Virus record (IMG/VR): IMGVR_UViG_2667527959_000010
Location: 1-16,565 of that record
Length of the DNA: 16,565 nucleotides
Reading direction: 5' to 3' (one strand)
Origin: a virus
Taxonomy: Duplodnaviria > Heunggongvirae > Uroviricota > Caudoviricetes
Part shown: one piece after another, positions 47 to 16,565 of the stretch
Numbering within the stretch: the stretch's first letter is position 1
Layout of the letters: every line of letters begins with the position of its first letter
The notes under the pieces: model-generated
Databases searched by the model: none
Told to the model about the DNA's origin: nothing
What the model saw: the letters and a program-made list of their open reading frames with translations, nothing else
Program-made: the position numbers and the translations under genes

Positions 47-709
47 TTGCAACAGTGCCTCGACGGGACCAAATACAGGAATGTCTGGGTTGTTGGTGAT
101 CTGCATGGTTGCTACACCAGACTGATGTCCGAACTCCATCGTGTGGATTTTGACCCGGCGCAGGATTTACTGATATCGGTCGGCGACCTTATCGATCGCG
201 GCACCGAAAATGTTAAATGCCTGGAGCTATTGCAGATGCCATGGTTCAGAGCGGTTATGGGCAACCATGAGCGGCTGATGATTGATGCGTTAAGTCCTGA
301 TGGCAACGTGAATAACTGGCTAATGAATGGCGGTCAATGGTTCTTCATGCTGGACGCTGATCAGGAAATATTAGCCAGGGCGCTGGTGGAGTTGGTAAGA
401 CGACTGCCCTATATCATTGAGTTGAACACCGGGCAAGAAACTATCGTTATAGCTCATGCCGACTATCCGGATAATGAATATCAATTCGGTAAGGAGGTGC
501 CGCTTTTCAATGTTGTCTGGGCGCGCGAGCGTATCAGTGATTCGATGGATGATATTGGTGGCGAAATTTCGGGCGCAGATCGTTTTATCTTTGGTCACAC
601 TCCGGTGAAAAGCCCGAAGACATTCTGGAATCAGCATTATATCGACACTGGTGCCGTATTTTGCGGAAACCTGACATTGATGAAAGTGAAAGGTGATGGT
701 GCAGCATGA
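47..709 (+). CDS. Serine/threonine protein phosphatase, PPP family (lambda phosphatase-like)
   Basis: 220 aa with PPP metallophosphatase motifs GDLHGC, GDLIDRG, GNHE and HADYP, and an N-terminus that aligns with lambda phosphatase as recalled. Only in-frame start after the upstream stop at 26-28 is TTG at 47, with no clear SD, so the start is uncertain. May correspond to a P1 phosphatase gene by position (from memory, unverified). Confidence 0.85.
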
Positions 710-1407
710 AGATTGCTTTAGTTCTTCGCTCTGGTGGTGACTATAACGCTTCCGATGTGCAGTGGCTGGTTAATCAACTGCCAAAAGGCTATGAAATTAT
801 TTGCCTGACAGACCTGAAGCGTTTACATGTGCCAGGCGTTAAGGTTGTCCCATTAATCAACCAGTGGCAAAAGTGCCGTGGCTGGTGGGCGAAAATCGAG
901 TTGTTCCGACCTGATATAACCGATGATCTGTTCTATCTGGATTTGGACACGGTTATTGCCGGTGATATACGCCCAATTCTTGAGAATCCACCAACCAACT
1001 TCACCATGCTTAGGGATTTTTACCATCCACAATATCGTGGCAGCGGTGCTCTGTGGATACCAAATAGTGTAAAAGCGCATATCTGGAGTGCATTCTGGCA
1101 AGATCCGGAAGGTTGGATTGCTCGTTGTGTTACAACTGAGTGCTGGGGGGATCAGGGGTTCTTGCGGAAGGTTATGGGCGATGACACACCAGCATTTCAG
1201 GATCTGTATCCAGGATGGTTTGTAAGTTACAAGGCCGATGTTGTGGAACCTGGTTCAAAATATGCGAGCGCGCGTTACTCCAGGGGGAATGGGACATTAC
1301 CAAAGGACTGCCGAATAATCTTTTTCCACGGCAAACCGCGGCCTCGCGAAGTGTCAGAGGATTGGCTTCCCCTCATTAGCTCGTTTTTTGAGCGAGAATT
1401 AGAATAA
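706..1407 (+). CDS. Hypothetical protein, 233 aa, with DxD-like motif (YLDLDTV)
   Basis: Long ORF whose ATG overlaps the phosphatase stop (ATGA), suggesting translational coupling. N-terminus [11 protein letters not shown] and LDLDT resemble a nucleotide-sugar transferase fold, but this is only a weak motif impression. Confidence 0.6.
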
Positions 1408-1408
1408 T

Positions 1409-1425
1409 ATTGCTCTAATAATTCA
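1409..1425 (+). promoter_or_regulatory. C1 repressor operator-like site (ATTGCTCTAATAATTCA)
   Basis: 14/17 match to the P1 C1 operator consensus ATTGCTCTAATAAATTT, with the first 13 positions identical. Overlaps the stop codon of the upstream ORF. Confidence 0.6.
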
Positions 1426-1436
1426 ATATTTTTAAT

Positions 1437-1464
1437 ACGTGATGTACACTCATCACGTTTTTTA
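1437..1464 (+). terminator. Rho-independent terminator-like hairpin
   Basis: Perfect 8-bp stem ACGTGATG/CATCACGT with 6-nt loop, followed by TTTTT(A)TT. Sits immediately after the phosphatase/233-aa operon. Confidence 0.55.
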
Positions 1465-1474
1465 TTAGAGCAAT
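1458..1474 (-). promoter_or_regulatory. C1 repressor operator-like site, inverted orientation
   Basis: Reverse complement reads ATTGCTCTAATAAAAAA, 14/17 to consensus. Forms an inverted pair with the 1409-1425 site and overlaps the terminator T-tract. Confidence 0.55.
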
Positions 1475-1488
1475 CCATAAGGTGCACT

Positions 1489-1707
1489 ATGTGGCCATTC
1501 CGACGGAAATATCACTACTGGCTGATCGCCTTTGTTACACCGTCCGGCGATATCAGGCATGTCATCACCCGGTATCGCAACAAGAGACTCACCTTAGCCA
1601 GAATTTTACAGGCTGCCATTGGTGAGGGACTGGATACAAATTGCGTAGTCCTTCCACCTTCATACTTAGGAAAAATGACCGAAGCACAAGCTAATACGGA
1701 ACTTTGA
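1489..1707 (+). CDS. Hypothetical protein, 72 aa
   Basis: ATG at 1489 preceded by SD AAGGTG (1479-1484) at 4-nt spacing. Stop TGA at 1705-1707 lies one base before the ATG of the next ORF, suggesting coupling. No recognisable motifs. Confidence 0.55.
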   Translation: MWPFRRKYHYWLIAFVTPSGDIRHVITRYRNKRLTLARILQAAIGEGLDTNCVVLPPSYLGKMTEAQANTEL

Positions 1708-1708
1708 A

Positions 1709-2971
1709 ATGAGCACTTCAGCACAAAACCAATCAATCGAAAATGTATCTATCCCTGACGTCCTGAATGCCGGTATCCCGGCCATTATTCAGAACATCCG
1801 AGCCGCGCAACGCCGCGTTAGTTGTGATGACCTCACAGCACGTTTTTTTGATAATGCGGTTCAGTCAGCTGAGATGCTTCACGCACAGCTTATTGATGTT
1901 TATAACGCAGAAGCTGATAGCCATAACGACCTGGTAGATGCAGCTGAAAATATGCAGTTGGATCTCGGTCTGAAGGGTAAAGAAATTGAAGATCTTCAGC
2001 TGCAAATTGAGCATTTGAAACGCCAGCAACAGGATGCCATCGACGATGCGACGCATGACGCCAACCAGCGTGCTGATAATGCCGAACGTATAAGCATTGA
2101 GTTGGAAACAAAACTCAATGAAATGACCGCTATGGTTGAGCTGCGGAATTCACAGATTTCAACACTAAAATCTCAATATAAAGAGATCATGAAACTTGAT
2201 CCTTTTAACCTTGAGAAACGTTATAACAAAGCCAAAAGCGAGCGCCAGGAACTGCGTAAGCAGGTCGCCGACCTTAACCAACAGCTCAAAAAGGCTATTA
2301 AAGATGCAAGCGAGGCGCGCGTGGCATTTGCTAATAAAAAAGCAGAGGTTACCGAGCTGGTTAATGAAAATGCTAAATTTGCGATGCTCAAGAAGGAAAT
2401 GTATGGCATTACTGAGCGCCGTTTTCCTGCAAGCAAACTCCATCCGACGTTAGGGCAAATCTCATTCTTCCCGCGCCTCCTGGCTTATGGAATCTCATCG
2501 CCTAAAGAGTTCAATAACGAGCGTCCTTATATCGTTTCTAAGCTGGACTTTGCTTATCAGTTCTGCTGTGACATGGGCTATGCCATTGATATCCGTATCA
2601 ACGAATGGTTGATGCCAAACTTCCAGCCGTTGGCCATTTTCCGCGAGTTCCAGCCGGAAGGTTGGGTAGAGTTCTTCCATGAAATGATCTGTAAAGAGAT
2701 GGAAAGCCGCCGCCCGGAACTGGTCCGCCGTGTCGAGTGGGCGCAAGAGGTTATGTTGGCAGATGCAGAGCTACCGTTCGAACCGGAATTCATTGATGAA
2801 CTGGCCAATAAAGGGCTGCATAGCCTATTTGATGTAGTTACCCGCCGTCATGAGCAGTTGGTTGTTGAATTGGGTTTAGAAGAAACTGCGGCAAGAAGAC
2901 TTCTCGATGTTTGCTATGCACGTAGCGATGCATGGGAAAAAGAGAACGGCGGTACTATTTACGTTCGCTGA
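1709..2971 (+). CDS. Hypothetical protein, 420 aa, N-terminal coiled-coil-like region and C-terminal globular domain
   Basis: Long uninterrupted ORF followed by a strong terminator. The N-terminal ~230 aa are rich in E/K/Q/L heptad-like sequence (e.g. LQLQIEHLKRQQQ, ELRKQVADLNQQLKK); the C-terminal ~190 aa are Cys/aromatic-containing with no motif I can assign. Confidence 0.8.
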   Translation: MSTSAQNQSIENVSIPDVLNAGIPAIIQNIRAAQRRVSCDDLTARFFDNAVQSAEMLHAQLIDVYNAEADSHNDLVDAAENMQLDLGLKGKEIEDLQLQIEHLKRQQQDAIDDATHDANQRADNAERISIELETKLNEMTAMVELRNSQISTLKSQYKEIMKLDPFNLEKRYNKAKSERQELRKQVADLNQQLKKAIKDASEARVAFANKKAEVTELVNENAKFAMLKKEMYGITERRFPASKLHPTLGQISFFPRLLAYGISSPKEFNNERPYIVSKLDFAYQFCCDMGYAIDIRINEWLMPNFQPLAIFREFQPEGWVEFFHEMICKEMESRRPELVRRVEWAQEVMLADAELPFEPEFIDELANKGLHSLFDVVTRRHEQLVVELGLEETAARRLLDVCYARSDAWEKENGGTIYVR

Positions 2972-3044: not shown

Positions 3045-3551
3045 TTGAGTATTTTCAACCAACACGCACACCATGAACGTCCGTATATCGTCATAGTTGA
3101 TATTGATGGAACAATATCAGAGGCAACTGAAGACAGACTGCATTTGCTTCCGCCACCAGGTAAAGGTGCATTAACAAAGGACTGGAACGAGTTTAATCTC
3201 GCCTGTGACACTGATACTCCCATAACTCCAGTTATTGATATTGTGCGCCAGTTATATAACGTTTACACGGTCTGGTTTGTAACCGGGCGCTGTGAGATCG
3301 CAAGGGATAAAACATGAGCCTGGCTGCGAAAGTACGTAACAAACGGGGATGAGCCTTTGCTATCTATGCGTCCTGCCACCGATGACAGAAATGACGGTCC
3401 AGCAAAGATTGATCTCCTTAAGAAAATTGGTCTAAGCAAAATTGCGTTCGCGCTGGAAGATAAGATTGAAGTGGCGCGTGTTTTCAGGCGTCACGGCGTG
3501 CTTACGTTAATGGTCAGGGAGTATGAAAACGCGCTTCTTCATCAGCAATAA
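3045..3551 (+). pseudogene. HAD-superfamily phosphatase (polynucleotide 3'-phosphatase/Pnkp-like domain) interrupted by a single in-frame TGA at 3315-3317
   Basis: ORFs 3045-3317 and 3357-3551 are in the same frame, separated only by one TGA and 13 sense codons. The joined product has HAD motif I IVIVDIDGT, motif II-like WFVTGR, and a C-terminal K/DD region resembling the T4 Pnkp phosphatase domain as recalled. TTG start with strong SD GAGGAGG (3034-3040). Confidence 0.6.
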
Positions 3552-3567
3552 TTGCTCTAATAAATCT
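3551..3567 (+). promoter_or_regulatory. C1 repressor operator (ATTGCTCTAATAAATCT)
   Basis: 16/17 match to the C1 operator consensus. Overlaps the TAA stop of the phosphatase ORF and a TTGATA -35-like hexamer (3567-3572); a GAAAAT -10-like hexamer follows at 3590-3595. Confidence 0.7.
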
Positions 3568-3589: not shown

Positions 3590-3623
3590 GAAAATAAAAA
3601 CATGCCGCAAGGGGCGCGGCATG
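3590..3623 (-). terminator. Hairpin with T-tract on the minus strand (possible terminator for leftward transcripts)
   Basis: Perfect 8-bp stem CATGCCGC/GCGGCATG (3601-3623) with 7-nt loop. On the minus strand it is followed by TTTTTATTTT; on the plus strand it is not followed by a U-tract. Confidence 0.45.
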
Positions 3624-3651
3624 TATCAAATCAATCACAGGAGCTGAAGAT

Positions 3652-3738: not shown

Positions 3739-3772
3739 GGGGAGTATATTAGCCATTTGGAACCCCACGGTC

Positions 3773-3802
3773 TCTTGCGGGTTTAATTAAGAACCCGCAA
3801 GA
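3773..3802. other. Stem-loop at the hsdR 3' end (11-bp stem TCTTGCGGGTT/AACCCGCAAGA, 8-nt loop)
   Basis: Perfect inverted repeat 15 bp from the hsdR stop codon. The A-run lies 3' on the plus strand and the T-run 5' on the minus strand, so it is not a canonical intrinsic terminator in either direction. Confidence 0.4.
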
Positions 3803-3817
3803 AAAATACGAATTGGG

Positions 3818-6800
3818 CTATATTTTTCCGCCTACGCCTTTAAACTTCTCAATAAACGAGACGATTTTCTGGAAAACTGCCTGTTTTTTCGTTTTATATT
3901 GCGGATTCAACGGACTAAGTTTTGGTAATGTTTCGTTTAATTCTGTGCCATTTTCGGTGGCGTATTCGCGTTTTAAAGACGTGCGAATATAGCGTTTTGC
4001 TGCATCTTCATTAAGATTTTCTTCTTTTATCAATGCTTCTGCTTCACGTTGCTGTTCGCGTTGAGCAAACGTAAAGAATGCGTCAATGATGCTGGCTTTG
4101 TCCGGTAAATCATCCAGGTTCGTTTGCTGAATAAAATCGACCACCAGGCCCTCTTTAGCACGGTTCCCTAGGCTTGAACGAATTAAGCGTTTGACCTCTT
4201 CGATCATTTCGCCCTTGCCTTTATTTTGTCTGTTGTGTTCGAAAATCAGTCCAAGGATATAATCCAGGTTTATTTCCTGAGACTTCAGCAAATCGACCTC
4301 AAAAACTACGTCATCCCAGTCAGTGGTTGATTTCTCTTTTTTCTCAGCTTCTTTCTCACGGCGCTGCCAGTCGCGAATATCGTTATAGGCAGAACGATAA
4401 TCCTGAATCTTGCGATCAGCAGGGAGACGAATTGTTTGCAATTCAGCGAGCTTTTCATCATCCACATAATGTTCTGCTTTGAATTTTTCTACTGCAACAG
4501 GATCGCTAAGATCGATTTGTTGCAGGGCTTTCAGCGTGGCAAATTCATCATAGTTTTGCAGGATGTTCTCGGTACGCAGGTATTCACCAAACAGTTTAAC
4601 GAAGTCTTTCTTCTCTTTTTCACTTTCAATACTGGTAGGGTCAGGGAACCGTTGTTCCAGTTCTGAAACTACTGTCATGAAGCCGCGTTTAGCTTCACCA
4701 GTGGCAGCATCAGTAAAGCCTTCCATATACTCTGCATAACTCTTTTCTAAAACCACATTTTTGGTATTTTTGTCACCAAACAGCGTTATGGCATCAATAG
4801 TTGAGCGTTCCAGATCCCGGAAAGTGACGATATTACCGAAGGTTTTAGTTGCATCATAAATACGGTTGGTGCGGGAAAATGCCTGCATCAAGCCGTGAAA
4901 ACGCAGGTTTTTATCGACGAATAGCGTGTTCAATATTGGAGCATCGAAGCCAGTTAAAAACATCCCCACGACAATTAACAGATCGATATCCTGATTTTTA
5001 ACCCGCTGGGCTAAATCACGATAGTAGTTCTGAAAACCGTTACTGTCGGTGCTGAAGTTAGTTTTAAAATAGCTGTTATACTCACGAATTGCAGCATCAA
5101 GAAACTCTTTAGCACTGCTGTCCATTGCGCTGGTATCAAAAGTTTCATCGGAAATTTCACCAATGGCATTTTGTTCTTCATTGGCAGCAAAGGAGAAGAT
5201 TGTCGCAATATGCAGCGGTTTATAGGTGGCCGATTTATTAGCTGCTTCCTCTTGTAACCGTTTAAACGTCGCGTAATAGGCTTTTGCAGCATCCACGCTG
5301 CTCACTGCCAACATAGCATTAAAACCTTTTGAGCCAGGGAAGGTACGGTGGGTTTTCTGGCGGAAATTATTCAGAATATATTGCGTGATTTCCTGAATAC
5401 GCATGGGATGAAGAAACGCCTGCTGATTTTCAGCCGCACTCAGTTTTTTCTCGTCAGTTTCTGTCTCTAAAGACTTAAACTGTGGCCGCACATCGTTGTA
5501 GTCCACCTTGAATTTGAGCACTTTTTCGTCACGAATCGCATCGGTAATTACATACGAATGCAATTCACGACCAAATACGCTGGCGGTTGTTTCTGAGCCT
5601 AAGGCGTTTTCCGGGAAAATAGGGGTGCCGGTAAAACCAAACTGATAATAGCGTTTGAATTTCTTCTTCAGGTTTTTCTGCGCTTCTCCAAACTGGCTGC
5701 GGTGGCATTCATCAAATATAAACACCACTTGCTGATTATATACAGGCAGGTCGCTTTCTGCTTTCATCAGGTTATTGAGTTTCTGAATAGTAGTGACGAT
5801 AATTTTGTTATCGTCCTTATCCAGATTTCGTTTAAGGCCTGCGGTATTTTCCGAGCCGTTGACGCTGTCTGGCGAAAAACGCTGATATTCCTTCATGGTC
5901 TGGTAATCGAGGTCTTTCCTGTCGACCACGAAGAAGACTTTATCAATAAAGTCCAGCTCTGTTGCCAGACGCGCGGCTTTAAAGCTGGTGAGGGTTTTAC
6001 CAGAACCGGTAGTGTGCCAGATATACCCACCGCTTTCCGGTTTTGACCAGTTCTTCGCTGTAAAGGAGCTCTTAATTTTCCACAGAATGCGCTCGGTGGC
6101 AGCAATCTGGTACGGTCGCATCACCAGTAGCGTCTGACTGCTGTCAAAAACGCTGTAGTTCACCAGAACATTAAGCAGAGTATGTTTCTGGAAAAAGGTA
6201 GCGGTAAAATCTTTGAGGTCTTTAATCAGCGTGTTGTCTGATTTCGCCCAGTTCATGGTGAAGTCAAAACTGTTTTTATCGCGCTTTGTTGTGTTGGCAA
6301 AATAACGGGTATCGGTGCCGTTAGAAATGACAAACAGTTGCAGATACTTAAACAGGGAATTTTCGCTGTTAAAACTCTCTTTACTGTAACGATGTATCTG
6401 GTTGAAAGCCTCACGAATCGCCACGCCGCGCTTTTTCAGTTCGATTTGTACCAGTGGTAAGCCATTAACCAGGATCGTGACGTCATAACGGTTAGCATGA
6501 GAACCCGTCTGTTCAAACTGCTGGATAATCTGCACCTTATTGCGCATGAGATTCTTTTTATCTATCAAATAGATGTTCTCAAGTCGCTCGTCATCAAAAA
6601 TAAAGTCGCAAATATAGTCGATATGGATTTTACGGGTCTTATCCAGAATGCCATCGCTCGGGTTGTCCAGATACTGCTCCGTGAAACGCCGCCACTCGCT
6701 GTCATTAAACACCACACCATTGAGGCTCTGAAGCTGTTCCCGAACATTGGACAGCATAGCCGACTGAGATTTTACGGATATAAATTCATAGCCCTGATTC

Positions 6801-6934
6801 CGCAGGTCCTGAATCAGTTCACGTTCCAGGTCCGATTCGCTCTGGTAGCTGTCGCCTGTTTGCTCAGCTTTGATGTACTTATCAAGGACGATAAAGTTAT
6901 TGGATTCAGCAATGGTGTGTGTTTGATGAGTCAT
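3818..6934 (-). CDS. hsdR: Type I restriction enzyme R subunit (HsdR), type IC-like
   Basis: 1038 aa. Walker A TGSGKT, DEAH-box FDECHR, and an N-terminal PD-(D/E)xK-like nuclease motif (D...IELKK). Length matches EcoR124I HsdR as recalled. SD AAGGA upstream of the ATG at 6934. Confidence 0.95.
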
Positions 6935-7055
6935 AGCGCATCCTTTGTGCCGCCTGGCAAGGGCCGGAAGGGCGTTAAGAGTGACTTCCGGCGCGTAAAA
7001 AATAGTCTATATACAGACCGGGTGTTAAGGTGGCCCGGTCGGTAGCAATGGTCAA

Positions 7056-8312
7056 TTAATTACTGACAGTTTCAGGTGTTGGGAAACTGAACAGTAAATC
7101 ACGATAGTACTCGTATTGTTTCTGGCGCAACTCGATTTCACGCGGAAGACCTTCGGTGATGGAGTTGGTCAGGGTGTCGAATTTATCGAGCAGAGCAGAT
7201 ATTCGCTCTTGTTTCTGTTTATCAGGCAATGGCACTGGTAATGTTTTTATAATATCTGCATTCAAGTTACTGACCGACCCGCTATTGATTTTACTTTCCC
7301 AATAATTTTTCACCTTTTTTGATGAAAGATAGTGATACAGATAATCAGCATTTAATTTTTCACCAAAATTGCTGATTGATGCCCATCCATCATGGATAGC
7401 TCCGGTTATCCTTAAAATATATGGTCTGCCAAAGCTCATAGAGTTAGAAATGACGAAATCACCGGGGTTCAAGATTCGCGATTTTTGGGCACCCTCTGCA
7501 GTTATTTTTTGTAAGGTTTTGTCAATGTATTTAGAGCCGGGTATAGTATCTCCGATTTTAATCCATGGGATACCATTTCCTTGTTCAGTAAGATAATTAA
7601 CAATTGGTCTGGGGGATGCCCCTCGTTGTATTTTGGCTACTTCTCCCAATGCCTTCCACTCAACCTCACCCTCATCAAAACTCAGCAATTGGTCGCGATA
7701 GTAGTTGTACTGTTTTTTACGCATGTTAAGCTCAGCGGTAAGCTCAGCGGTAAGTGCAGTAAATTTATCCAGAATCCGAACGATTTCAGACTGGATGGCA
7801 AGGGATTTTTCCGGATTATCCGGGCAAGGGATTGGGATGAGTAGTTTTGACATCAATGCATTTGAGCTTAGGTTCGGTTGTGCTCCGCCCCCGGCGAGGA
7901 TATAAATAGTCTCTGTATTTAACAATAAAAAATGGTATAAATAATTATTGTTTAGAATATTTTCTTTGGGTATGAATTTCCCAACCCGTTGGTTAAGATA
8001 ACATTTTGTTCCTTTTTTATAAATTCCTACCTTTCCTGTAGTGGCACCTGACATTGCAATCAATATATTTCCCATAGATACCTCAAAGGAGGATAAATCT
8101 TCCTTGTAATCATTTAGTGAAAAGTATTTCACCTCATCTAAGTCAACATTAAATCCATCTATATTTGTGATTCTGACTATCGGTAACCCAGTTTCTTTAA
8201 ATAAGCTGCTTTTAAATGCAAATCCATTTTTAAAATCACAAACATCCTTCAAGGGTTTCCACTCAACCTCAACCCCATCCAGCAATTTTTCCAGATAACT
8301 TAACTCGCTCAT
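7056..8312 (-). CDS. hsdS: Type I restriction-modification specificity subunit (HsdS), type IC-like
   Basis: 418 aa with two variable target-recognition regions separated by the conserved central region ...[33 protein letters not shown], and a C-terminal conserved repeat ...[36 protein letters not shown], as in the EcoR124I/EcoDXXI family. Confidence 0.95.
7730..7753 (-). repeat. Tandem 12-bp repeat (2 copies) encoding TAEL-TAEL in the HsdS central conserved region
   Basis: GCTCAGCGGTAA x2 on the plus strand, which is ACCGCTGAGCTT x2 in the coding sense. A degenerate partial third unit follows. Confidence 0.8.
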
Positions 8313-9871
8313 TTTTGCACCTCGCAGCCTTCAATTTCAGCCACAATTGCATCAATATCTTTACGCAACTGGTCGATTTTGCTGACCGTGGTTTTCAGCT
8401 CAGCATTCAGCTCACCGATATCGATAATTTCGCGGTTATCTTTCGCTTCCACATAGCTGCTCACCGACAGGTTATAGTCATTCGCGACAACGGCTTCAAA
8501 CGCGACAGATTTTGCCAGATGAGCAACATCTTCCTTGCTGGCAAATACCTGCATAATTTTTTCTATATGGGCATCGGTCAGAATGTTGTTGTTAGTCTCT
8601 TTTTTGAACAGTTCGCTGGCATCAATAAACTGAACTTTGGTATCCGTTTTATGTTTAGACAGCACCAGAATATTTACGGCAATGGTGGTGCCAAAGAACA
8701 GGTTCGGTGCGAGTGAAATCACGGTTTCGACATAGTTATTGTCGACCAGATACTGACGGATTTTCTGCTCCGCGCCGCCACGGTAAAAAATACCCGGGAA
8801 GCAGACAATCGCGGCGCGACCTTTGGCCGAAAGATAGTTCAGCGCATGTAGTACAAACGCAAAGTCAGCTTTGGATTTGGGGGCCAGAACGCCAGCCGGG
8901 GCAAAACGTTCATCGTTAATCAGCGTCGGGTCATCGCTGCCAATCCATTTCACCGAATACGGTGGGTTAGATACGATGGCGTCAAACGGTTTTTCATCTC
9001 TGAAGTGCGGCTCAGTCAGCGTATTGCCCAGCTTGATATCAAACTTGTCGTAGTTGATATTGTGCAAAAACATGTTCATACGCGCCAGGTTATAGGTCGT
9101 ATGGTTGATTTCCTGACCGAAAAAGCCTTCTTCGATGATATGGTTATCAAACTGTTTTTTCGCCTGCAACAACAGTGAGCCGGAACCCGCTGCCGGGTCG
9201 TAGATTTTGTTAACGCTGGTCTGCCCGTGCATAGCCAGTTGTGCAATCAGCTTGGAGACGTGCTGCGGTGTAAAGAACTCACCGCCTGACTTACCGGCAT
9301 TTGCCGCATAGTTAGAAATCAGGAACTCATAGGCATCACCGAACAGGTCAATCTGATGTTCGTTGAAGTCACCAAGTTTTAACCCTTCAACCCCTTTCAG
9401 AACCGCAGCCAGGCGGGCATTTTTATCTTTAACGGTGTTACCCAGGCGGTTACTGGTGGTATCGAAATCAGCAAACAAACCTTTGATGTCAGCTTCTGAA
9501 GGATAACCGTAAGCAGAACTTTCGATAGCAACGAAGATGCTGTTTAAATCTGCATTCAGTCTGTCATTAGTATTTGCTTTCGCAGCTACGTTGCAGAAAA
9601 GCTGACTGGGGTAGATGAAGTAGCCTTTAGTTTTGATGGCATCGTCTTTAATGTCATCAGTAATTACGCTGTCATCCAGTTTCGCATAACAGATACTGTC
9701 ATCACCGGCTTCAATATAGCTGGAAAAATTTTCGCTGATAAAACGGTAGAAAAGTGCGCCCAGAACGTATTGCTTAAAATCCCATCCATCGACCGAACCC
9801 CTGACATCGTTAGCAATTTGCCAGATTTGACGATGAAGCTCTGCACGTTGTTGAATACTTGTCATTTTCAT
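8309..9871 (-). CDS. hsdM: Type I restriction-modification N6-adenine DNA methyltransferase subunit (HsdM)
   Basis: 520 aa. AdoMet-binding motif [10 protein letters not shown] and catalytic motif NPPY ([10 protein letters not shown]). Its stop overlaps the hsdS start by 4 bp. N-terminus [13 protein letters not shown] matches my recollection of EcoR124I HsdM. Confidence 0.95.
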
Positions 9872-10047: not shown

Positions 10048-10269
10048 ATGCAATCCATTAACTTCCGTACCGCGCGTGGCAACCTTTCTGAAGTGCTCAA
10101 CAATGTTGAAGCCGGGGAAGAGGTTGAAATCACCCGCAGAGGCCGTGAGCCAGCAGTAATTGTCAGCAAGGCTACTTTCGAAGCCTACAAAAAAGCGGCG
10201 CTGGATGCTGAATTTGCATCCCTGTTTGACACCCTGGACTCCACCAACAAGGAACTGGTTAACCGATAA
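10048..10269 (+). CDS. phd: Phd antitoxin (prevent host death)
   Basis: 73 aa, [41 protein letters not shown]..., matching P1 Phd as recalled. SD GAGGTG 4 nt upstream. The ORF track's 10042 GTG start adds two residues; ATG 10048 is preferred. Confidence 0.95.
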
Positions 10270-10649
10270 TGAGGCATATATCACCGGAAGAACTTATTGC
10301 GCTTCATGATGCGAATATAAACCGCTACGGCGGCCTGCCGGGCATGTCAGATCCGGGTAGGGCAGAGGCCATTATCGGGAGAGTTCAGGCCAGAGTTGCC
10401 TACGAAGAGATCACCGACCTTTTCGAAGTCTCCGCCACCTACCTGGTGGCTACAGCGAGAGGGCATATATTCAATGATGCCAATAAGCGTACCGCGCTAA
10501 ACAGTGCGCTGTTATTTCTACGCCGTAACGGGGTGCAGGTATTTGATTCACCTGAACTGGCAGACCTTACCGTAGGGGCTGCGACCGGAGAGATATCTGT
10601 ATCTTCTGTCGCCGACACGTTACGTAGATTGTATGGTTCTGCGGAGTAG
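10269..10649 (+). CDS. doc: Doc toxin (death on curing), Fic-family kinase
   Basis: 126 aa with Fic motif [11 protein letters not shown]. Start overlaps the phd stop (TAATG). Matches P1 Doc as recalled. Confidence 0.95.
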
Positions 10650-11905: not shown

Positions 11906-11922
11906 ATTGCTCTAATGTATTG
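11906..11922 (+). promoter_or_regulatory. C1 operator-like site upstream of lpa (ATTGCTCTAATGTATTG)
   Basis: 13/17 match to the C1 operator consensus, first 11 positions identical. Overlaps a TTGCTA -35-like hexamer (11920-11925) spaced 16 bp from a TATTAT -10-like hexamer (11942-11947). Confidence 0.6.
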
Positions 11923-13724: not shown

Positions 13725-15208
13725 TGGCCAGAAGTTGCGTAACGGACCCACGTTGGCGCGAGCTGGTGGCGCTATATCGTTATGACTGGATTGCGGCCGC
13801 TGATGTGTTGTTTGGGAAGACACCAACCTGGCAGCAGGATGAGATCATTGAGTCCACGCAGCAGGACGGCAGTTGGACAAGTGTGACCTCCGGCCATGGT
13901 ACTGGTAAATCGGATATGACGAGTATCATTGCAATACTCTTCATCATGTTTTTCCCCGGCGCTCGCGTCATTCTGGTCGCTAACAAAAGACAGCAAGTCC
14001 TTGATGGTATTTTCAAATACATAAAGAGCAATTGGGCTACTGCTGTTAGCAGATTCCCGTGGTTGTCGAAGTATTTCATTCTTACAGAAACGTCTTTTTT
14101 TGAGGTGACTGGCAAGGGTGTTTGGACAATATTGATAAAGTCCTGTCGCCCCGGAAATGAGGAGGCGTTGGCTGGTGAACACGCCGATCATCTCTTGTAT
14201 ATCATCGACGAAGCGTCGGGTGTGAGTGATAAAGCATTCAGTGTGATAACAGGTGCGCTGACCGGTAAGGATAACCGTATTCTGCTTCTTTCCCAGCCTA
14301 CGCGACCTTCAGGCTATTTCTACGATTCACACCACAGACTAGCTATTCGCCCGGGAAATCCTGATGGATTGTTTACTGCGATAATACTGAATAGTGAAGA
14401 ATCTCCGCTTGTAGATGCAAAATTTATACGAGCAAAACTTGCGGAGTATGGCGGTCGTGATAACCCCATGTACATGATCAAAGTACGTGGTGAATTTCCC
14501 AAATCTCAAGATGGCTTTCTTCTTGGTCGTGATGAGGTTGAGCGGGCGACGCGGCGAAAGGTCAAGATTGCCAAAGGATGGGGCTGGGTTGCATGTGTTG
14601 ACGTTGCTGGTGGCACAGGACGAGATAAGTCCGTTATTAATATCATGATGGTGTCCGGCCAGCGAAATAAACGCCGTGTAATCAACTATCGTATGCTGGA
14701 ATACACAGACGTTACAGAAACGCAGTTAGCCGCCAAGATTTTCGCAGAATGTAACCCAGAACGGTTCCCGAACATAACCATAGCTATTGATGGCGATGGC
14801 TTGGGGAAATCGACGGCTGATCTAATGTACGAACGCTATGGCATTACCGTCCAGCGTATCCGCTGGGGTAAAAAGATGCACAGCCGTGAAGATAAAAGCC
14901 TTTATTTCGATATGCGCGCTTTCGCGAATATTCAGGCGGCAGAAGCTGTAAAATCAGGGCGTATGAGGCTTGATAAGGGGGCTGCGACTATAGAGGAAGC
15001 ATCAAAGATACCGGTAGGGATAAATTCCGCAGGTCAATGGAAGGTGATGTCAAAGGAAGATATGAAGAAAAAACTCAACCTGCACTCACCGGACCATTGG
15101 GATACATATTGTTTCGCTATGTTGGCGAACTATGTTCCCCAAGATGAAGTGCTTAGCGTCGAAGACGAAGCGCAGGTTGATGAAGCTCTGGCATGGCTTA
15201 ATGAATAA
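13724..15208 (+). CDS. pacB: Terminase large subunit PacB
   Basis: 494 aa. Start overlaps the pacA stop (TAATG). Walker A-like GHGTGKS and Walker B-like [10 protein letters not shown]. Confidence 0.9.
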
Positions 15209-15232: not shown

Positions 15233-16084
15233 CTATTGCGCGCTTTCGGGGTTGTCGTTTACTGGCTGCCCCTTCTTAGTTTTGCGGCTGCGCGTAACTG
15301 ATGCGGCTGATTTGACCTTTTTCTCTTCGCGAGTGATGGCAATTTGTTTTTTTACATTTTCAATATCTGCCAGGCGATATATTTTTGCTTGCGGCCAGCG
15401 GTCGCAGATGATCGGTTCTATGGAGTCATAAAGGCTAAATTTTGCTTTTTCGAATTCACCGTTGATGATAATTCCATCACGGAGAGTTTCATCGCAGATA
15501 AACACGCCACACAGTGGCACATGGTAACTCACTGATTTACCATCATTGTAGTTAGGGCTACTGGAAATGTAGTGGACGCGCAGCATTGTTTCGCTAAAGC
15601 CGTGTACGCGCATACGGAATTTTTCATCCTCTGGGTACTGCTTCATTAGCTCTTTTGTTGCTTCCAGGTTCTCTATGTATTTCGCACTGTGCTCATTGAT
15701 CCCCGCGCTTTTTTGGATGCGAATGTCCTTATCAATCAGATGAATAATGCGGCCAGCGGTCATGTTGACGCTGTTCACAGCTTCTGTCTGATAAGTTGTA
15801 ACCTTGCGAACACCGCGAAGGATGTTAGGCACTGGATATAAAATAGTCTTTGGGATATTGAGGTCTGGGTACTGTTCCAGTTCCCGCGCCATTAAAGTCC
15901 ATTTATCAATTTCAGCCTGAATGCTGTCAGTTTCTTTGAACGGTAGAACGACAACCGGGCGTACAGGACGACCGTCGCTGGCTGTATCAACGTGTTGGGC
16001 GCGTGCAACAGCTTTTTTTAGAAAGAGATCCCTGAAGCTGACGAACTCCTGGTACAGTTGTTCGCCGTAGACATAATTTATCAT
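15233..16084 (-). CDS. c1: C1 repressor of lysis (primary immunity repressor)
   Basis: 283 aa, MINYVYGEQLYQEFVSFRDLFLKKAVARAQHVD..., matching P1 C1 as recalled. Convergent with pacB as in P1. Confidence 0.95.
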   Translation of the reverse strand: MINYVYGEQLYQEFVSFRDLFLKKAVARAQHVDTASDGRPVRPVVVLPFKETDSIQAEIDKWTLMARELEQYPDLNIPKTILYPVPNILRGVRKVTTYQTEAVNSVNMTAGRIIHLIDKDIRIQKSAGINEHSAKYIENLEATKELMKQYPEDEKFRMRVHGFSETMLRVHYISSSPNYNDGKSVSYHVPLCGVFICDETLRDGIIINGEFEKAKFSLYDSIEPIICDRWPQAKIYRLADIENVKKQIAITREEKKVKSAASVTRSRKTKKGQPVNDNPESAQ

Positions 16085-16178: not shown

Positions 16179-16195
16179 AGATTTATTAGTGCATT
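16179..16195 (-). promoter_or_regulatory. C1 operator-like site between coi and c1 (Op99-like)
   Basis: Plus strand AGATTTATTAGTGCATT is 14/17 to the reverse-complement consensus AAATTTATTAGAGCAAT. Position corresponds to the autoregulatory operators upstream of c1 in P1. Confidence 0.45.
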
Positions 16196-16404
16196 TATTG
16201 TGAGTCTAACTGGTTAGTTGCCATGAGATATTCGATTGTGTCAGTGAGGTCATCCAGGTCGTCTTGGGTGATGCGGTACTCCTGATTGGATATCTTTGAG
16301 TAGTGTTCAGCAATGGCGCGGGCAGCGTCGGTTTCGGCAGGGTCTACAGATAAAGCGTTAGAGCAATGTCTAACGTCGTCGATGGTTGGTTGAATGAAAG
16401 CCAT
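16195..16404 (-). CDS. coi: Coi (C1 inactivator)
   Basis: 69-aa acidic protein immediately upstream of c1 on the same strand, with SD GAGG. Size and position match P1 Coi. Confidence 0.85.
   Translation of the reverse strand: MAFIQPTIDDVRHCSNALSVDPAETDAARAIAEHYSKISNQEYRITQDDLDDLTDTIEYLMATNQLDSQ
16351..16367 (-). promoter_or_regulatory. Weak C1 operator-like sequence inside coi
   Basis: Plus strand TAAAGCGTTAGAGCAAT is 12/17 to the reverse-complement consensus. Embedded in a 7-bp inverted repeat CGTTAGA/TCTAACG. Confidence 0.3.
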
Positions 16405-16565
16405 AATTATGCCTCACTGTATTGACAACACAGAGCCTGAAGCTCTGACCTACTGTTTCACCCATGATCCATGCTGGGGTAATCTAACAACATTGCGCTG
16501 TGTGTAAGGGAAGGTGCGAACAAGTTCCTGATATGAGATCATCATATTCATCCGGAGCGCATCCC

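Follow-up and report, generated by a model that had tools for sequence, protein, structure and literature searches.

The 66 bp at positions 1409-1474, between the genes pmgQ and pmgR of a P1-like phage-plasmid, probably constitute a C1-repressed promoter for pmgR-pmgS that lies inside an intrinsic terminator ending the pmgN-pmgQ unit, with the promoter's own transcripts escaping termination. We put the probability of this reading at roughly three in four. The two C1 operators in it are known from the annotation of phages P1 and P7.

The window, i. e. the whole stretch of 16,565 nucleotides that was analysed (IMG/VR record IMGVR_UViG_2667527959_000010), is 99.97% identical to pAW1.7_1, an IncY plasmid of E. 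coli O128ac:H12. The final 57-59 bases on each side (1-59 and 16509-16565) did not align to this plasmid in blastn. In the pmgQ-pmgR region the DNA identity with the phages P1, P7, RCS47 and SJ46 is 96-97%. On the upstream side, the unit pmgN-pmgO-pmgP-ppp-pmgQ closes with pmgQ (706-1407, plus strand). The first and second downstream genes, named after the P1 annotation, are pmgR (1489-1707, plus strand; PMC9024508) and pmgS (1709-2971, plus strand). Both are head-assembly genes; pmgR is an essential head-completion gene, and for the pmgS homologue of phage D6 the annotation gives a putative prohead scaffolding protein. Pfam gave no useful match for PmgQ, PmgR or PmgS, and Rfam gave zero matches for the whole window. 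The repressor that would recognise the operators is C1. Its gene lies in the same window, 14 kb away (15233-16084, minus strand), and the product shares 99.3% amino acid identity with P1 C1.100.

Elsewhere in the window a type I restriction-modification locus on the minus strand (3818-9865) replaces the part of P1 that extends from pmgT through humD. It consists of hsdR (3818-6934), hsdS (7056-8312) and hsdM (8309-9865), all on the minus strand, and is flanked by the operator OpmgT/Op88 (3551-3567) and by phd/doc (10048-10649). According to notes in the P1 GenBank record, the flanks there match sequences adjoining the EcoDXXI and R124 hsd loci. The homologue of the P1 acid phosphatase gene pap (3045-3551, plus strand) has an in-frame stop at codon 91, which is Arg in P1, and because of this stop the pap of the present element is probably a pseudogene. 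Past Op88, two G+C-rich inverted repeats were found, ACATGCCGC...GCGGCATGT at 3602-3626 and CTTGCGGGT...ACCCGCAAG at 3770-3805. An A-run comes after the latter, which looks like a minus-strand terminator for hsdR.

The operator pair between pmgQ and pmgR

The left site (1409-1425, plus strand, ATTGCTCTAATAATTCA) and the right site (1458-1474, minus strand, ATTGCTCTAATAAAAAA) agree with the C1 operator consensus ATTGCTCTAATAAATTT in 14 of their 17 bases each, and in both sites all three mismatches fall in the last four positions. As the first-pass annotation had described, the two 17-mers face each other at a distance of 32 bp; their centres are 49 bp apart. Their cores form a perfect inverted repeat of 13 nt (1409-1421 and 1462-1474). 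Six matches to the consensus with three mismatches or fewer were present in the window versus 0.12 expected from shuffled sequences, and none of the 200 shuffles gave six. P1 itself has 22 C1 operators, which together with this consensus are credited to the P1 genome paper in a publication of 2021 (PMC8546580).

For scoring, 13 other operators of the P1 annotation were turned into a matrix, with which they themselves score between 8.1 and 25.7 bits. The left site scored 21.7 bits and the right site 19.0 bits, compared with 18.8 bits for Olpa/Op94 and 15.6 bits for Oc1c. A scan with the same matrix also recovered the other operators expected in the window, namely OpmgT/Op88 at 3551, Olpa at 11906, Oc1a at 16179 and Oc1c at 16351. 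A weak operator-like match, TTTGCTCGTATAAATTT (14420-14436, minus strand; 14/17, 11.8 bits), lies inside the second, pacB-like terminase gene. The P1 record contains no operator feature in the homologous part of the pacB region, and this match is probably due to chance.

The comparison with the P1 operator map, which had been proposed as a check, identified the pair directly. At the homologous positions the P1 GenBank record AF234172 contains OpmgRa (82152-82168, plus strand) and OpmgRb (82201-82217, minus strand), formerly Op86a and Op86b, together with a predicted sigma-70 promoter, PpmgR (82153-82181). A note given there reads "controls expression of pmgR and pmgS". The same operator pair is found at 84533-84598 of the P7 record AF503408 under the names Op(sht[a]) and Op(sht[b]), and both records class the two sites as monovalent. 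The annotation notes of Op86a/b cite no earlier sequenced operator, unlike those of Op82, Op88 and Op94. P1, P7 and the window have the pair at the same place between pmgQ and pmgR, in the same orientation, with the same 32-bp gap and the same hairpin. Only two bases differ from P1: 1425, position 17 of the left operator, is A here and C in P1, and 1436, which sits in the predicted -10 of PpmgR, is T here and A in P1. The A at 1425 is shared with one of 82 close relatives, the other 81 having C; the T at 1436 is shared with none, all 82 having A.

These 82 close relatives comprise P1, P7 and sequences from IMG/VR. The left core is invariant among them, and a single sequence has a change in the right core. 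A scan with one genome per species gave only two close relatives from E. coli/Escherichia. More diverged lineages were picked by homology to the PmgS protein, i. e. with no use of the motif in the search. Three lineages were obtained in this way: the P1 group, a group of Salmonella plasmids, whose flanking DNA is about 67% identical, and Cronobacter phage JK004, whose PmgS has 69% amino acid identity. All three retain the 66-bp span, both operator cores (TTGCTCTAATAA) and the T6, and adjacent intergenic bases, for example those from the right operator to the pmgR start codon, have diverged freely. The lineages differ at position 1 of the right operator, where the plus strand has T, A or C. The operator cores, the 66-bp span and the T6 were unchanged as well in a JK004-like metagenome contig that surfaced in a pattern scan. 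The first-pass annotation would have given up the operators if the motifs had not been conserved in related genomes; the cores are in fact kept throughout the P1 group, the Salmonella plasmids and JK004. Phage D6 was discarded as a comparison, since its PmgS relative has 20% identity and its gene order is different; the P1 operator consensus had no match in the 7.2 kb around the D6 pmgS homologue.

Curated annotation in P1 and P7, scores on a par with those of other operators, the presence of c1 in the window and conservation in diverged relatives thus all support the reading of the two sites as C1 operators. They are the C1 operators already known from the P1 and P7 records, to which binding of C1 is predicted, and finding them is a correct rediscovery of annotated regulatory sites. 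The first-pass annotation had seen the operators and missed both the existing annotation and the predicted promoter inside the hairpin region.

Possibly, C1 binds the operator pair cooperatively or with looping, as the first-pass annotation had suggested. Two C1 molecules with centres 49 bp apart would then touch each other directly or via Lxc/Bof, the A/T-rich spacer being bent or looped and the hairpin incidental. The constant span would fit this: the cores are separated by 40 nt in all lineages, and throughout IMG/VR the inverted core pair occurs only at this spacing, or at 41 nt where the T-run has 7 T. So would the convergent orientation, which is also that of the bivalent operators Obanab (Op72ab) and Oc1ab (Op99ab), where two inverted 17-bp C1 sites likewise accompany a promoter whose -35 is the TTGCTC of the left site. 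Looping by C1 at the c1 region is reportedly described by Heinzel et al. 1994 (J Biol Chem). However, the two sites of Obanab (68667-68694) and Oc1ab (94166-94193) overlap with their centres 11 bp apart and form an incomplete palindrome of 28 bp, whereas the present pair is offset by 49 bp with a hairpin between the sites and is not of the bivalent type; the P1 and P7 records call the sites monovalent. A distance of 49 bp corresponds to about 4.7 helical turns, which is non-integral and very short for a loop. The constant span is explained equally well by a fixed promoter spacing and the length of the hairpin, and compensatory changes in the stem (see below) indicate selection on the hairpin itself. 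We therefore consider a cooperative unit unlikely and prefer two monovalent operators that flank a promoter and a terminator.

The hairpin between the operators

An intrinsic-terminator-like hairpin occupies positions 1437-1463 of the plus strand. Its sequence is ACGTGATG-TACACT-CATCACGT (1437-1458), in which 1437-1444 and 1451-1458 form a stem of eight perfect pairs, four of them G:C, around the loop TACACT (1445-1450). A run of six T (1458-1463) follows, T1458 being common to the stem and the run. The hairpin was reported by a terminator scan of the window, folds with -10.3 kcal/mol (z = -4.35) and lies 30 nt past the stop codon of pmgQ. The first-pass annotation had placed it exactly in the middle between the operators and had let it overlap both of them. 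The perfect 8-bp stem and the T-tract are there, yet the hairpin is 6 bp off centre (its centre is at 1447.5, that of the operator pair at 1441.5), and it overlaps the right operator only, stopping 11 bp short of the left one. The T-tract coincides with positions 12-17 of the right operator on the minus strand, that is with the operator's 3' A-run. Another, small hairpin, CTCGTTT-TTT-GAGCGAG (1380-1396, plus strand), precedes the left operator at a short distance and belongs to the 3' end of pmgQ; close relatives differ from one another at several of its bases.

The stem has changed between the lineages and kept its pairing. The P1 group has CGTGATG/CATCACG, the Salmonella plasmids have CATGGTG/CACCATG, and JK004 has CATGGTG/CGCCATG, which includes one G:U. 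Between the P1 lineage and the Salmonella and Cronobacter lineages, compensatory changes thereby appear in two of the eight stem pairs, one from G:C to A:U and one from A:U to G:C. In the stem, 96.3% of the cells were paired, versus 17-62% in controls with a slid partner. The folding energies are nearly equal, with -10.3 kcal/mol for P1, -10.9 kcal/mol for the Salmonella plasmids and -10.8 kcal/mol for JK004. Among the close relatives, six single variants disrupt a stem pair. Taken as essentially one lineage split, and hence few independent events, the compensatory changes are evidence that pairing of the stem is under selection.

The best reading of the hairpin, given its stem, the T-tract, the position after the pmgQ stop codon and the two compensatory changes, is a predicted intrinsic terminator for plus-strand transcripts coming from pmgN-pmgQ. 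It resembles the Rho-independent terminators of enterobacteria, which have a stem-loop of about -10 kcal/mol directly followed by T6 shortly past a stop codon. It would differ from these in two respects: its T-tract doubles as part of a predicted repressor binding site, and the -10 and start region of a promoter lie within or beside the stem, so that it would act only on transcripts from upstream.

In P1, the Salmonella plasmid and JK004 the terminator scan did not report the hairpin. We attribute this to a putative extension of the stem into the flanking A/T runs, which would consume the T-tract, and do not count it against the hairpin; in the window, T1436 blocks such an extension. The database records of P1 and P7 have no mark for a hairpin between the operators. 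As the P1 GenBank record lists zero terminators within the 54 kb inspected, its silence on the hairpin is uninformative; the P1 genome paper contains a terminator list. The roles of pmgR, the operator consensus and the figure of 22 operators are given in P1 papers that deal with virion assembly, essentiality by CRISPRi, RNA-seq and the lysogeny decision. No transcript ends at the pmgQ-pmgR region are mapped in these papers, and neither C1 binding nor repression at Op86a/b turned up in the P1 literature examined. The CRISPRi screen of P1 missed pmgR and is thus uninformative on the operon structure there.

The inverted repeat of the operator cores could itself be read as RNA. If so, only the left operator would be functional, and the match at the right would be a by-product of an outer 13-nt arm (1409-1421 and 1462-1474) of a stem that stabilises or processes read-through mRNA. 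Indeed, the full read-through RNA of 76 nt has a nested fold of -24 kcal/mol (z = -8.5) that pairs the operator cores with each other, and positions 15-17 of the right site are AAA instead of TTT. But with 19.0 bits the right site scores within the span of the other operators annotated in P1. As the cores are invariant, covariation that would favour RNA pairing over protein binding is absent, and position 1 of the right site varies with no matching change at the left end, as expected if a weakly required operator base is lost and not if a pair is maintained. On balance, a single functional operator is very unlikely, and we keep the reading of both sites as operators.

Least credible of all is that the inner palindrome is the DNA site of a dimeric phage or host protein with which it co-evolves: this would account for the exact 8+8 repeat with its 6-bp centre and for half-sites that change symmetrically between lineages, but not for a T6 directly after the 3' arm in every lineage, a location 30 nt past a stop codon, a folding energy that is constant across lineages, or the G:U-type changes in JK004 and several variants, which keep an RNA helix and not the symmetry of the DNA, and no candidate protein is known.

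The predicted nested promoter and its possible role

Carried over from the P1 record, the predicted sigma-70 promoter PpmgR falls at 1410-1438 on the plus strand. Its -35 TTGCTC (1410-1415) is part of the left operator and is separated by a spacer of 17 nt from the -10 TAATAC (1433-1438). The -10 hexamer is TAATAC in the window, TAAAAC in P1 and TGAAGC in JK004, the final T being absent in every lineage. PpmgR is weak: the -35 matches the consensus at 3 of 6 positions, and a consensus scan gives no call. P1ban/Obana also uses the TTGCTC of an operator as the -35, and the P1 record lists this one as a promoter and not as a predicted one.

An alternative -10 candidate is the loop of the hairpin (1445-1450, plus strand), which is TACACT in the window and P1 and TATCAT in the Salmonella and Cronobacter lineages, so that TAnnnT is conserved. 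The scan of JK004 gave a predicted promoter TTTACT-16 nt-TATCAT with 9 of 12 matches. From its sequence, the TAnnnT of the loop might thus serve as a -10. RNA that begins in the loop does not fold significantly (z = 0.32).

A late promoter dependent on Lpa was sought in 1409-1474 with a consensus derived from five annotated P1 late promoters (a 9-bp -22 box, AAGTGACTT, 4 nt and a TAnnnT -10). It was rejected: the best 9-mer, ACGTGATGT, matches at 6 of 9 positions, and a -10 is missing at the distance required. A promoter-like site on the antisense strand, ATGATA-18 nt-TAAAAT, was reported by the scan for the Salmonella and Cronobacter lineages (L087 1214-1243, L083 2712-2741, minus strand). 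It is made up from the loop of the hairpin and the left operator's 3' end and is directed back towards pmgQ, and might be a chance occurrence in A/T-rich DNA.

The following mechanism is suggested by this arrangement. Two monovalent C1 operators facing each other between pmgQ and pmgR would control the pmgR-pmgS operon. The left operator would supply or overlap the -35 region of a weak sigma-70 promoter, and the right operator would cover the start of the transcribed region, so that in a lysogen C1 could keep pmgR-pmgS off. The stem-loop with its T6 would terminate transcripts arriving from pmgN-pmgQ. Whether the -10 is the annotated hexamer that immediately precedes the stem or the loop's TAnnnT, transcription would begin within the hairpin or shortly past it, at about 1445-1458. 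Of the stem, the resulting RNA would contain the 3' arm alone and so would escape termination. In this scheme we infer the binding of C1 at both sites, the choice of the -10, termination in vivo and the escape of the promoter-initiated RNA.

The first-pass annotation had assigned termination of the upstream operon and repression of the downstream operon to the same 66 bp. Its repression part agrees with the P1 and P7 operator annotation, and its terminator part gains computational support from the stem, the T-tract and the compensatory changes. A terminator ahead of morphogenetic genes would, however, block late transcripts from the upstream promoter LPpmgL, which seems wasteful and counts against the model. 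So do the weakness of PpmgR, the low number of G:C pairs in the stem (four) and the six single variants in which a stem pair is lost.

A more specific and rather doubtful version is that the element works as a one-way insulator. The 5' arm of the stem would lie upstream of the start of the embedded promoter and the U-tract would at the same time be a C1 operator, so that transcripts from upstream would be stopped and the promoter's own would pass; in a lysogen, C1 bound to the T-tract could add a roadblock at the point of termination. The nested promoter-in-terminator logic, here seen in three lineages, was not found described for P1 in the literature searched, and the P1 genome paper may cover it.

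The operator pair has little significance beyond showing that a reader of sequence alone recovers real regulatory sites. The sole addition, a modest one, is the conserved and compensated hairpin nested with the predicted promoter and the right operator, with both of which it has bases in common. It offers a testable picture of how pmgN-pmgQ is separated from pmgR-pmgS and how pmgR is silenced in the prophage, which may be of use for the engineering of P1 and for the annotation of the many P1-like resistance plasmids.
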